NCBI GenBank assembly: GCA_020048915.1
Contig: JAIFLU010000027.1
Span: forward strand, 7,614 to 71,613
Length of the DNA: 64,000 nt
Origin: Bacteroidota bacterium
GTDB taxonomy: Bacteria > Bacteroidota > Bacteroidia > Bacteroidales > JAAUTT01
Direction of reading: 5' to 3'
Made by a program: the position numbers and the translations under genes. Positions 56,154-58,850 of this stretch are shown piece after piece. Each line of letters opens with the position of its first letter. The stretch's first letter is position 1. A model generated the notes under the pieces. That model ran no database searches. It saw only the letters and a program-made list of their open reading frames with translations, and was not told where the DNA came from.

Positions 56154-58850
56154 ATGATTAAGGCATTCAGCTCCATAAAAGCCAAACTGGCAGCAATTAT
56201 TAGTATAATTATTGCCCTTTTTGCAGTTTCATATATCATGGTTTATAATAGCATGTATTACTCCCAGGATGCTATTAAACAGTCTGTTAACCTGAAATAT
56301 CTCCGACTGTATCCTGAAATGCTTCAAAGCCAGCTCAATACGTTACTGCAGAAAGAGATTTTAGAGACCGCTATTTATCAAACGGAGGTTAGTACTGCAT
56401 TAGATTCAATGATTCGTATAAGAAAAAACCATGTAAAGCTGCTTGATACAATATTTTACTCGCATTATCTCCGGAAAAAAGAGCTTCTTGGTCAGTCGAA
56501 AGGAATTAGAATTGAATTGGCTAAGTTTATTAATGGCAATGAATTGCTGTTTAAACAACTTTTGGAACGCGGGTCCTTAACAACTGGAAAAGCTGGAGAA
56601 TGGAACCGGCAAGGCGATTTTATTGAAAACTATTTTTCGGTATTAAAAAATCCTGTTTTATTAAAATCCTGGATAGATATTCGCAAGCACGAATTTAAAT
56701 ATTGCTTACTGCACGATCCAATTTCTTTTGAAGAATTGGCGAAAAGCGCTACTTTACTGAAATCGAATTTAGCTTCAAAGGCACCTGATCTTACAAGGTC
56801 AGTTTCGGAAGGCGATAGGTTAAGAAGCGATGCAGAGATTGGAAAATATTTGGAACTCGCCTTTTCAGTTCGTGGAAAAGATAAATCGATCGGTATTGGA
56901 ACCAATCAAGGAATAATTGGCAATCAATTATTCCAACTAGCCATTATCTCGGAAAAATGCAATTTACTTAGCCAAAACCTGGAGAAGCAATTAAATTCGT
57001 TTATTTTCAATCAGTTTTTATTACGAATATTTACATTATTATTTCTTACTGTAATTGTTTTATATTTCATATCAAGCTGTTACAGAAATATTCAACGTTC
57101 TATCTCTGGCATAATCAATTATCTTCTGGAATTAGTGCAGGGAAAGCTCCCTGAGCCTATAACCTTAGAATCCAAAGATGAGTTAAAAAGGATTTCAGAA
57201 TTAATTGGAGAGTTTGTTTTAAGTATTCGGGGGAAAGTTAAATTTGCCCAGCATCTTGGTAAAGGAACGAATAATCAGGAGCTAGTGCCTTTGAGTAAGG
57301 ATGATACATTAGCAAATGCTTTGTTGGAACTGCAAGTAAGTTTGAAGAAAGCTTCCGAAGAAGATGCCAAATATAAAATTGAAGAAAAGAAAAGGGCATG
57401 GTCTAATGAAGGATTGGCAAAATTTATTGAAATACTCCGGTATCAAACCACAAGTATTGATGAGTTATCCGATTTAATTATTAAAAACCTGGTAAAATAC
57501 CTGAATGCTAATCAAGGAGGTATTTTTGCTTATTTTGACGATATTCCGGAAGATCAACATCTTGAATTGGTTTCTGCTTTTGCGTTTGATCGTAAAAAAC
57601 ATCTGCAAAAGCGGGTGGAGATTGGCGAAGGCCTTGTGGGGACATGTGCTCAGGAAAAACTTACGATCTATATGACCGATATTCCTGCTGAATATATTTC
57701 AATAACTTCTGGACTTGGAGAAGCAACTCCCCGTAGCTTGCTTATTATCCCTTTAAAAACAGAAGATGCGATATATGGAATACTCGAGATTGCTTCCTTT
57801 AATATTTTGGAACCTCACGAAATTGAATTCGTGGAGAAATTAGCCGAAAGTATTGCATCAACATTTGCTTCGTTAAAAATTAACGTTCATACTTCAAAAC
57901 TGCTTGAACAATCGAAAAAACAAGCAGAAGAAATGGCACAGCAGGAAGAAGAAATGCGCCAAAACCTCGAAGAGCTACAGGCAACACAGGAAGAATCGGA
58001 CAGGCGTGAAGCTGAAATTTTAAGTATTGTCGGAGCTATCGATCTCTCCTCCGTGGTTATGGAATTAGATATGGATGGAAAAATAATTGAAATCAACAAA
58101 AAATATTGCTCCGTAATCAATTGTCATAAGGAAGATTTATTTGGAAAAAACCTTCGTGCAATTTGCTATTTCGATCCTCAAACGGATGATTACAATTACC
58201 TGATTTCGGAACTTCGTAATGGACGAAGTATGGTTCGTGAAGAAGAGGTTCATTTTAACAACAAACAATATTATTTTACACAGAATTACAGTCCTATTTT
58301 CGACAAAGACCGAAATCCTTATAAAATACTTTTAATTGCATCTAATAATTCAGATAAGATTCACCTAAGTGCTAATTTGTCAGAGCTGAACACTAAGCTT
58401 GTTTCGAGTGAAAACCAGTTAAGCAGCCTCAATGATGTGCTCGACAAGGCTCTTATGGTTGCCGAGCTAACTCCGGATGGAACCATCATAAATACAAACA
58501 AAAATTACCTGGAAGTTACTGGTTATCTTCAAAATGAAGTACTAGAAAAAAACGCCAGGTTTTTCCTGAAAGCGGAAGAACTGCGACAATTTGAATTAAT
58601 TTGGGCTGAAGTTGAAAAAGGAAAAGTTCATCAGGGCGTAGTGCGCAGAACCAAACCTACAGGAGAAGAATATTGGCTTATGTCAGCAGCTATTCCCGTA
58701 ACAGATAATAATGGACTGATTCTAAAAGTATATTTTATTGGCCAGGATATTACAGAAAAGAAATTGAAATATCAGGTTCTCGAAGAGGCGAATAAAGAAA
58801 TTGAGCGGCTAAAGAATCTGTATGAAAAAAATAACAAAGAACAAATATAA
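56154..58850 (+). CDS. Membrane sensor: TM, ~270-aa extracytoplasmic domain, TM, HAMP-like linker, GAF, Glu/Gln-rich coiled coil, 2 PAS; no recognisable output domain
   Basis: TM segments [19 protein letters not shown] and [20 protein letters not shown]. GAF ([44 protein letters not shown]). Coiled coil [32 protein letters not shown]. PAS-like blocks ([14 protein letters not shown]..., [17 protein letters not shown]...GEEYWL). Confidence 0.75.
   Translation: [898 protein letters not shown]

Follow-up and report, generated by a model that had tools for sequence, protein, structure and literature searches.

As described in PMC6943060 and bioRxiv 10.1101/2022.05.07.491037, the methyl-accepting coiled-coil (MAC) class goes back to Wuichet and Zhulin (2010); such systems were put forward at that time on genomic evidence and are catalogued in MiST, their profiles being absent from Pfam (PMC6943060). 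The bioRxiv text describes MAC proteins as joining receptor and kinase functions and states that, as of 2022, none had been characterized experimentally or shown to be methylated; a literature search for MAC biochemistry found nothing relevant. In the MAC2 arrangement, as outlined in these sources, the MCP-like Glx-Glx sites sit on a conserved coiled coil that is not part of an MCP signalling domain, CheR and CheB are encoded by separate genes alongside, and the genome or locus lacks CheA and CheW. In MAC1—exemplified by a CheB-CheR-PAS histidine kinase fusion of Nostoc flagelliforme (WP_318670692.1; L088 4269-8123)—the receptor includes both enzymes as fused domains and signals through a histidine kinase, and its coil is built of six or seven near-perfect heptad repeats with the pattern E-E-[LI]-x-[AST]-[ST]-[NQ], e.g. 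NEELQSTNEELETAKEEIQATNEEL.

Canonical chemoreceptors possess an MCPsignal domain and are coupled to CheA/CheW. Helix 1 of E. coli Tsr (Q297, E304, Q311) presents its sites EQQAAS, EETAAS, and EQLTAT with heptad spacing, starting at residues 296, 303, and 310. Fixed-length, heptad-periodic helical linkers of about 40–50 residues that connect a sensor to downstream domains are known as signalling helices (S-helices) of multidomain sensors, reportedly from work by Anantharaman, Balaji and Aravind in 2006. The SiaA/SiaB/SiaC(/SiaD) system of Pseudomonas aeruginosa (PDB 6kko) comprises, in this order, a membrane PP2C phosphatase, a SiaB-family kinase, and the phosphoprotein SiaC (DUF1987). Here, we compare with these systems an operon of an uncultured Bacteroidales bacterium.

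An operon of CheR, CheB and two membrane sensors

All coordinates refer to the window, the 64 kb stretch of DNA analysed, and all features lie on its forward strand. The operon consists of CheR1 (55136–55996), the membrane sensor A (56154–58850), CheR2 (58853–59671), a CheB methylesterase/deamidase lacking a receiver (59674–60231), a GAF-only membrane-anchored protein (60238–60999; Pfam GAF_2), a second membrane sensor, B (61002–63614), and the gene of a SiaB-family protein kinase, whose 5′ part (63638–64000) is truncated by the window end and whose translation matches L001 12637-13221. On the source contig beyond that point, the gene map places a SiaC-like gene and then a TerB-ABC transporter gene. 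Intergenic gaps of 2–23 nt from sensor A through the SiaB-like gene mark a tight operon. The GAF-only protein ends where the coil would be expected to start, and keeps the same position in orthologous operons.

Sensor A (898 aa) is composed of a transmembrane segment, a helical extracytoplasmic domain, a second transmembrane segment, a HAMP-like region, a GAF domain (Pfam, residues 432–570), the MAC-type coil, and two PAS domains, with a Pfam PAS match at 772–868; it has no output domain, a Pfam search returning no match to MCPsignal, HisKA, HATPase, GGDEF, or SpoIIE. Sensor B (870 aa) has a transmembrane region, GAF, the coil, two PAS domains, and a SiaA-like PP2C phosphatase, with Pfam matches to GAF, PAS, and SpoIIE (669–869). 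In neither protein did Pfam detect MCPsignal (PF00015) at E≤0.01, HisKA or HATPase, or a fused CheB or CheR domain, and because PF00015 is not matched, a canonical MCP identity for A and B was ruled out. Some MCPs—and only some—end in a pentapeptide of the pattern aromatic-x-x-aromatic that tethers CheR and CheB. It is absent from both sensors, A ending in ...NNKEQI and B in ...LIGIEF.

CheR1 is a protein-glutamate O-methyltransferase whose SAM-binding motifs are canonical (Pfam CheR, 3e-39, and CheR_N; PDB 5ftw, 1e-28); it keeps the motifs IWHAGCSTGQEVYS, ATD, and CRNVIIYF, as do its orthologues with minor variation. CheB is a catalytic domain alone (Pfam CheB_methylest, 5e-48, residues 5–181 of 185), and its triad Ser10, His37, and Asp129 aligns with that of 6ymz. 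The catalytic residues of both enzymes are thus intact, and both appear to be active. CheR2, a conserved CheR paralogue (Pfam CheR, 7e-22), has its AGCSTGEE motif, the Asp of ATD, and its CRNV motif all replaced, in the window's copy as well as in 15/15 orthologues; the N-terminal domain is retained in every one of them despite the loss of the SAM-binding motifs. CheR2 is therefore probably catalytically degenerate.

Four heptad-spaced Glx pairs in each GAF-to-PAS linker

In both sensors, GAF and the first PAS domain are joined by a conserved, probably helical linker of about 45–50 residues that would display four Glx-Glx pairs on one helix face. By translation, the MAC-type coil of A spans 57882–58031 (residues 577–626) and that of B 61914–62066 (residues 305–355). 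Spaced exactly seven residues apart, the pairs fall at 592/593, 599/600, 606/607, and 613/614 in A, with Met, Leu, or Ser as the next residue, and at 321/322, 328/329, 335/336, and 342/343 in B, with Leu or Met as the next residue. The strict six-residue consensus is found at the third pair of each protein—E-E-L-Q-A-T in A (57969–57986; residues 606–611) and E-E-M-R-A-T in B (62004–62021; residues 335–340)—and the other three pairs have a relaxed form. As one of four heptad-spaced pairs, the strict hexad need not be the sole or main site. A first-pass annotation of the window had placed these two hexads at aligned positions, each followed by QEE, and had read 57891–58020 as it indeed translates; its range for the coil of B (61927–62055) has to be corrected, being out of frame, with the quoted peptide lying in frame at 61929–62054. 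The pattern [EQ][EQ]xxA[ST] occurs only three times in a six-frame translation of the 64 kb window, and two of these occurrences are the hexads of A and B.

Whether orthologues keep the hexad was a check proposed in the same annotation; they do, and so do distant paralogues. The strict hexad is found at the corresponding position in 105/120 homologues of A (29–96% identity over the segment from the GAF end to the PAS start), and the remainder mostly have Ala swapped for Ser or Thr; the column counts of the A family are 121/122 for E606, 122/122 for E607, 106/122 for A610, and 119/122 for T611. In the B-family set (n = 121; the window's B and 120 homologues), A-E-E-M-R-A-T-Q-E-E-L is invariant in 120–121 sequences. 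The four pairs show much the same degree of conservation, the small residues at +4 and +5 are conserved too, and residues 583–614 form the best-conserved 32-residue segment of A (mean top-residue frequency 0.94 vs 0.78 for GAF and 0.60 for PAS1). Among fully conserved pairs, Gln and Glu replace each other most clearly at position 329 of B (Gln in 106 sequences, Glu in 15), an alternation resembling that of MCP sites deamidated by CheB.

The helical nature of the region, a second proposed check, was supported, with one caveat from the model of A. Heptad periodicity runs through the coil region (register score of B, 4.05), and the AlphaFold2 model of B (m04eda8041bd0) sets its coil inside one continuous 71-residue helix (283–353); in the model of A (m943f636155ab), residues 577–605 are non-helical, with pLDDT <50 over 578–598, and the helix begins at the hexad. 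These models are of monomers and ambiguous for the coil of A, and pLDDT at both hexads reaches only about 57–59. The alignment of the A coil (50 columns, 122 sequences) is free of indels and has almost no helix breakers, with one Gly at one position.

A search with the coil profile matched 3777 protein clusters, and the same coil recurs 2–9 times per protein, linking PAS domains. Among the top 149 matches, one had a kinase, eight a PP2C domain, and 140 no detectable output domain in a screen that omitted GGDEF and EAL; none had a fused CheB or CheR.

Relation to known methyl-accepting coils

The first-pass annotation had also likened the linkers to those of CheB-CheR-PAS kinases, and at the motif level this holds: in the Nostoc fusion protein, whose repeat is quoted above, EEIQATNEE aligns in register with EELQATQEE of A (hhalign). 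The similarity to the MAC1 coil is weak (E 3e-4, probability 39%), and A and B differ from MAC1 in their unfused CheB and CheR, their lack of a histidine kinase output, and their fewer, less perfect repeats. Site 3 of Tsr, M-E-Q-L-T-A-T, is nearly identical to L-E-E-L-Q-A-T of A, the common form being [ML]-E-[EQ]-L-x-A-T, and the heptad spacing of the Tsr sites equals that in A and B. Compared as profiles, the coil and methylation helix 1 of Tsr showed no significant similarity (E 0.02, probability 2%); we therefore dropped homology at the profile level and claim a resemblance in motif and geometry only. Canonical chemoreceptors further differ from A and B in their MCPsignal domain and CheA/CheW coupling, since A and B lack this domain, the tethering pentapeptide, and nearby CheA/CheW genes, and nothing about them hints at a hairpin four-helix bundle.

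Judged by sequence and by the later descriptions of the class, A and B fit the MAC class in a MAC2-like arrangement: their Glx-Glx sites lie on a coil and not in an MCP signalling domain, CheR and CheB are separate neighbouring genes, and the locus lacks CheA and CheW. Unlike the MAC receptor-kinases portrayed in the bioRxiv text, A lacks an output domain and B carries a PP2C phosphatase. The idea of a methyl-accepting coil is, as those descriptions make plain, already published as the MAC class; possibly undescribed are the PP2C/SiaB/SiaC output, the conserved degenerate CheR paralogue, and the many receptors without an output domain. With S-helices, the linkers share their length, periodicity, and position, and differ in an almost invariant Glx-pair motif and in genetic linkage to CheR and CheB.

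Conservation of the gene neighbourhood

The operon order is kept in genomes and metagenomes of Bacteroidales and Marinilabiliales, including cultivable relatives such as Labilibacter sediminis and Geofilum rubicundum. An argument from coil-anchored genomic loci proved weak—CheR and CheB were both within 10 kb in only 17/80, and neither was in 63/80—and was replaced by the reverse test, starting from CheB. Around metagenome CheB orthologues, CheR was found upstream in 64/64 loci and, downstream, B in 47/47, the SiaB gene in 40/40, and the SiaC gene in 39/39. These CheB are close orthologues (67–83% identity), and the counts therefore demonstrate synteny, not independent co-occurrence. The adjacency of coil-bearing sensors to CheR/CheB, from which the first-pass annotation had argued, is thus conserved in the loci examined, and in the lineage of the window these sensors are the only conserved neighbours of the CheR/CheB genes. 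Of 19 orthologous loci that extend 8 kb or more upstream, none encoded CheA, CheW, or an MCP, nor was any found in the window. The Marinilabiliaceae have a canonical Che cluster, complete with a CheR and a REC-CheB, adjoining the MAC operon, which retains a separate CheR/CheB set beside the canonical one. A literature search on Bacteroidota CheR/CheB without CheA found nothing relevant.

A putative SiaA/SiaB/SiaC-like output module

The kinase downstream of B scores 169.5 bits against NCBIfam SiaB_fam_kinase (NF038262; cut-off 85) and matches PDB 6kko_A at 2.5e-12. The following protein is annotated with the Pfam SiaC family and matches 6kko_C at 4e-17, with 87 bits against NF038265, below the equivalog cut-off of 150; a Thr in its ...NT... 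motif aligns with the phospho-acceptor position of SiaC, which we take to be Thr68. Sensor B matches NCBIfam SiaA (NF038263) at 3e-47 over its PP2C part only (residues 607–868), with 162 bits against an equivalog cut-off of 700. The order of phosphatase, kinase, and phosphoprotein is that of P. aeruginosa. Unlike there, the next gene is not a SiaD diguanylate cyclase but the TerB-ABC transporter, which follows the Sia genes in 34/34 loci; the phosphatase carries GAF, the MAC coil, and two PAS domains; and the operon includes CheR and CheB. Our literature search found no paper linking a Sia module to CheR/CheB.

Alternative explanations for the coil

The hexad could in principle be a product of the low-complexity, Glu/Gln-rich stretch that contains it, and shuffling the two 42-residue coils did yield a hexad somewhere in 7% and 5% of trials, but at one fixed position in 0.15%. 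The hexads of the two paralogues align with each other and are invariant, or nearly so, across hundreds of homologues of a coil whose profile matches thousands of clusters; this conservation is the decisive sequence evidence against chance, and because of it we regard that reading, whose probability is negligible, as already refuted. Glu/Gln-rich heptads are common in signalling helices, which counts against methyl acceptance. The coil may be a mere signalling helix, conserved by the mechanical constraints of passing a signal from GAF to PAS, with the CheR1/CheB substrate lying elsewhere; this would agree with the 63/80 coil-bearing loci devoid of either enzyme within 10 kb, with the repeated use of the coil between PAS domains, with the absence of indels and near-absence of Pro and Gly expected of any rigid linker, and with the non-significant similarity to Tsr. 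We nevertheless deem it unlikely, given that in the window's lineage the only conserved neighbours of CheR/CheB are coil-bearing sensors, with no MCP, CheA, or CheW nearby, that the Marinilabiliaceae MAC operon maintains a second, dedicated CheR/CheB set, and that conservation falls specifically on the heptad-spaced Glx pairs and the small +4/+5 residues.

Slightly less improbable is that the coil is indeed the CheR/CheB substrate and the main sites are other pairs, namely 592/593, 599/600, and 613/614 in A and 328/329 and 342/343 in B. In Tsr, three heptads in succession are used, the four pairs here differ little in conservation, and the Gln/Glu interchange at B 329, a hallmark of deamidated MCP sites, lies outside the strict hexad; only the latter, however, has the full Ala-Thr context, and it comes closest to Tsr site 3. 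The acidic face might alternatively be a docking surface that undergoes no modification, for example for CheR2, for an A-to-B contact, or for the SiaB-like kinase. Sensor A, being without an output, must contact something, and CheR2 has kept its N-terminal domain without SAM-binding motifs; an apparently active CheR1 and CheB in the same conserved operon would then go unexplained, and we consider docking alone improbable.

A proposed mechanism and its implications

We favour, at a probability of roughly 60%, the joint reading that the linkers of A and B are MAC-type methyl-accepting coiled coils on which CheR1 and CheB act as follows. CheR1 of the same operon would methylate glutamates within the Glx pairs of both coils, and the receiver-less CheB would demethylate them and may also deamidate Gln329 in B. 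Charge neutralization would alter the packing of the dimeric helix and thereby reset the strength with which the extracytoplasmic, HAMP-like, and GAF inputs reach PAS and, in B, the PP2C phosphatase; from A, which has no output domain, the signal would presumably exit through another protein. B, the SiaA-like component, would counteract the SiaB-like kinase at the SiaC-like phosphoprotein, so that this switch would gain adaptation or memory from methylation, without CheA/CheW. With CheR and CheB within 10 kb in so few coil-anchored loci (17/80), most coil receptors would need to be modified in trans. More tentatively, we can envisage a Bacteroidota chemoreceptor-like network without CheA/CheW, in which a single CheR1/CheB pair sets the methylation of many output-less GAF-(MAC coil-PAS)n receptors in trans, a catalytically dead CheR2 serves as adaptor, and these receptors converge on one MAC-PP2C that opposes the SiaB-like kinase on the SiaC-like switch, the TerB-ABC transporter being the conserved target.

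The locus offers a compact, testable MAC case, with two defined coils, named candidate glutamates, and an apparently active CheR and CheB. Its coils are proposed to feed a phosphatase-kinase switch rather than a chemotaxis kinase, and the phosphorylation state of the SiaC-like protein, set by the SiaB-like kinase against the PP2C phosphatase, provides a tractable read-out. Should the network exist, adaptation by reversible methylation would have been grafted onto a Ser/Thr partner switch, a CheR/CheB output not found in the literature searched. If the coils are indeed methylated, CheR/CheB adaptation would reach past CheA-based chemotaxis into partner-switch signalling, which would account for the retention of cheR and cheB in bacteria without CheA/CheW genes nearby.

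An operon encoding CheR, CheB and two membrane sensors

The last 9 kb of the window are occupied by closely packed genes, all on the plus strand. Pfam assigned a CheR (CheR1; 55136–55996), an 898-aa membrane sensor with GAF and PAS domains (sensor A; 56154–58850), a second CheR paralogue (CheR2; 58853–59671), a CheB of 185 aa (59674–60231), a GAF-only membrane protein (60238–60999), and an 870-aa membrane sensor with GAF, PAS and SpoIIE/PP2C domains (sensor B; 61002–63614); translation added the 5′ part of a SiaB-family kinase gene (63638–64000) that runs past the window end. 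Pfam found neither MCP signalling nor histidine kinase nor GGDEF domains in the two sensors and no receiver domain in CheB, and the 64-kb window encodes no CheA, CheW, CheY, CheD or MCP. The C-terminal end of the membrane-anchored GAF-only protein falls exactly where a coil—the stretch between GAF and first PAS—would begin; its position between CheB and sensor B is conserved, its sequence poorly so (22–38% identity). Sensor A closes with a conserved terminal helix (23 letters; residues 869–898, 58758–58847) of a type usually leading into an output domain, and none follows. The remainder of the window (2503–20728) is apparently an ordinary Bacteroidota polysaccharide-utilisation region, encoding a 1430-aa CBM96 protein that ends in a type IX secretion sorting domain, a GT2, a GH88, a SusC/SusD pair, and an ECF sigma factor accompanied by a FecR anti-sigma factor.

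On the source contig (L001, 12637–16716), sensor B is followed by the SiaB-family kinase (NCBIfam 169.5 bits versus a cut-off of 85; PDB 6kko_A), a SiaC-like phosphoprotein (Pfam SiaC; PDB 6kko_C, 4e-17) and a 1022-aa TerB-ABC transporter, the last two lying beyond the window; no diguanylate cyclase follows. In the SiaC-like protein, one Thr lines up with the residue that we take to be the phospho-acceptor in Pseudomonas aeruginosa SiaC (Thr68), and the PP2C domain of sensor B is closest to SiaA (3e-47, under the equivalog cut-off). Our literature search found no paper tying Sia-type switches to CheR/CheB.

Both coils carry a conserved hexad that fits the methylation consensus

As the first-pass annotation had proposed, each coil contains the strict methylation consensus [EQ][EQ]xxA[ST]: translation places EELQAT at residues 606–611 of sensor A (57969–57986) and EEMRAT at residues 335–340 of sensor B (62004–62021), both directly followed by QEE. 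The coil range given for sensor B (61927–62055) was out of frame and is corrected here to 61929–62054 for the peptide quoted; the hexad coordinates are correct. Over six frames of the window the pattern occurs three times, two of these being the sensor sites, and shuffling the coils produced it anywhere in 5–7% of trials, a rate that fell to 0.15% when a single position was prescribed.

The expected conservation in orthologues was likewise found. Among 120 homologues of sensor A, mostly annotated as Bacteroidales or Bacteroidota, 105 keep the strict hexad in register, and in the majority of the others Ser or Thr takes the place of Ala; the N-terminal sensor modules of these homologues vary (HAMP, dCache, four-helix bundle), and none of the 120 has an output domain on record. 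The conserved block of this family is broader than the hexad (32 letters) and holds one Gly, no Pro and no indels over 122 sequences, with residues 583–614 forming the most conserved 32-residue window of sensor A (0.94, versus 0.78 for GAF and 0.60 for PAS1). For sensor B, the search returned 120 homologues (one identical, the others 63–86% identical), and A-E-E-M-R-A-T-Q-E-E-L is invariant in 120–121 of 121 B-family sequences.

That the coils are helical, also part of the original proposal, finds support in sensor B, with an ambiguous model for sensor A. Hydrophobic periodicity of the heptad type is present in the coils, and AlphaFold2 models sensor B with one continuous helix (283–353) that includes the final helix of GAF and spans the coil, at a pLDDT of ~70 that drops to 59 at the hexad and lower further on; we regard this as supportive of a helical B coil. 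In the model of sensor A, residues 577–605 (57882–57968) are non-helical, with pLDDT <50 over 578–598 and a helix beginning exactly at residue 606—unlike the paralogous B segment (305–334; 61914–62003), which lies within the continuous, confidently modelled helix. Monomer models are often poor on dimeric linkers.

Gene neighbourhood and spread of the coil

Among genomes found with the coil pattern there is a recurring order of CheR1, A, CheR2, CheB, GAF-only, B, SiaB, SiaC and TerB-ABC. Searching in reverse, from CheB orthologues in metagenomes, yielded counts that show strong synteny rather than independent co-occurrence, since these loci are close orthologues: CheR upstream (64/64), an A-like gene upstream (26/31), B downstream (47/47), SiaB (40/40), SiaC (39/39) and TerB-ABC (34/34), with CheA, CheW or MCP in 0/19.

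In Marinilabiliaceae (Labilibacter sediminis, L027 11–9059, and 11 similar loci), a canonical cluster (MCP, STAS, CheY, Hpt, CheA, two CheW, CheR, a protein resembling a kinase, CheD, REC-CheB) lies directly upstream of the operon running from CheR1 to TerB-ABC; the latter retains its own CheR and CheB genes, so that two CheR/CheB sets stand side by side. The N-terminal sensor domain of the canonical MCP (L027 11–650) is 28–37% identical to those of receptors of the methyl-accepting coiled-coil (MAC) type in other genomes (L034, L035, L039, L044, L060, L065, L067, L079, L080), arguing for one input module on either signalling chassis.

A profile of the 50-residue coil matched 3777 clusters (50% identity) at E ≤ 1e-3 and 1809 at E ≤ 1e-10. 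The best 149 matches, screened locally for domains other than GGDEF and EAL, to which the screen is blind, are mostly GAF-(coil)n proteins with 2–9 coil copies; 12 gave no GAF match, eight have PP2C at the end, one has a histidine kinase there, and CheB or CheR fusions are absent. Pfam bore out these architectures on seven example proteins, among them GAF-(coil-PAS)x9 (protein P0242), a tandem of six coils that lacks PAS (P0241), Reg_prop/Y_Y_Y-coils-PAS-SpoIIE and PAS-HisKA-HATPase; arrays with a PP2C end include P0256 and P0349. The coil is a reusable module.

Relation to the MAC class

The MAC class has already been published, and the methyl-accepting coil of the first-pass annotation is its defining idea. 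A 2022 preprint divides MAC proteins into those with built-in CheB and CheR domains (MAC1) and those that associate with such domains (MAC2), and its summary statement has them contain a kinase (bioRxiv 10.1101/2022.05.07.491037). By this published description the window locus fits MAC2 in motif and in CheR/CheB association, whereas the kinase of the summary is not matched by the window sensors. A suggested likeness to the linker of CheB-CheR-PAS kinases holds in part: a MAC1-type Nostoc protein has NEELQST-type heptads in register with the window motif, in a weak alignment. Judged by sequence, the locus appears to belong to the MAC kind, known and experimentally untouched.

The coil as a candidate substrate

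Aligned to solved CheB structures, the window CheB has its triad (Ser10, His37, Asp129) in place, and CheR1 retains the canonical motifs IW.AGCSTG.E.YS, ATD and CRNV.IYF. CheR2 has a CheR fold, yet the SAM-binding motifs AGCSTGEE, ATD and CRNV are replaced both in the window and in each of the 15 orthologues examined, and the Asp through which other CheRs bind the SAM ribose is missing; CheR2 is probably a non-catalytic paralogue, a pseudo-enzyme or adaptor.

Reading the coil as a methylation substrate is supported as a hypothesis. Its main rival, by which the coil is a mere signalling helix and CheR and CheB act elsewhere, can be set beside the finding that just 17 of the 80 loci bearing the coil encode CheR and CheB within 10 kb, most coil-bearing receptors being orphans or in tandem arrays; MCP genes, too, are often orphan or tandemly arrayed, and we consider this rival unlikely. 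A refinement that we hold somewhat doubtful would place the main sites outside the strict hexad, at the remaining Glx pairs. In both sensors four Glx-Glx pairs lie at exact seven-residue spacing, each followed by Met, Leu or Ser (592/593, 599/600, 606/607, 613/614 in A; 321/322, 328/329, 335/336, 342/343 in B), and the hexad holds the third. B-family sequences have Gln (106) or Glu (15) at residue 329 (61986–61988) and Glu (36) or Gln (34) at residue 321 (61962–61964), an interchange resembling MCP sites at which CheB deamidates an encoded Gln. Escherichia coli Tsr has the same spacing (EQQAAS from 296, EETAAS from 303, EQLTAT from 310), and its third site, M-E-Q-L-T-A-T, nearly equals L-E-E-L-Q-A-T of sensor A. 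A profile comparison with Tsr gave no significant similarity.

We favour the coil as candidate substrate of CheR1 and CheB, with a probability of about 0.6: both enzymes would act on it, methylation of the heptad-spaced glutamates would tune how signals travel from GAF towards PAS/PP2C, and this tuning would set the balance, at the SiaC-like protein, between the B phosphatase and the SiaB-like kinase. As a guess, the output-less sensor A may pass its signal by hetero-oligomerisation with sensor B. Two features are possibly undescribed: the degenerate CheR2, and an output by way of PP2C/SiaB/SiaC/TerB-ABC.
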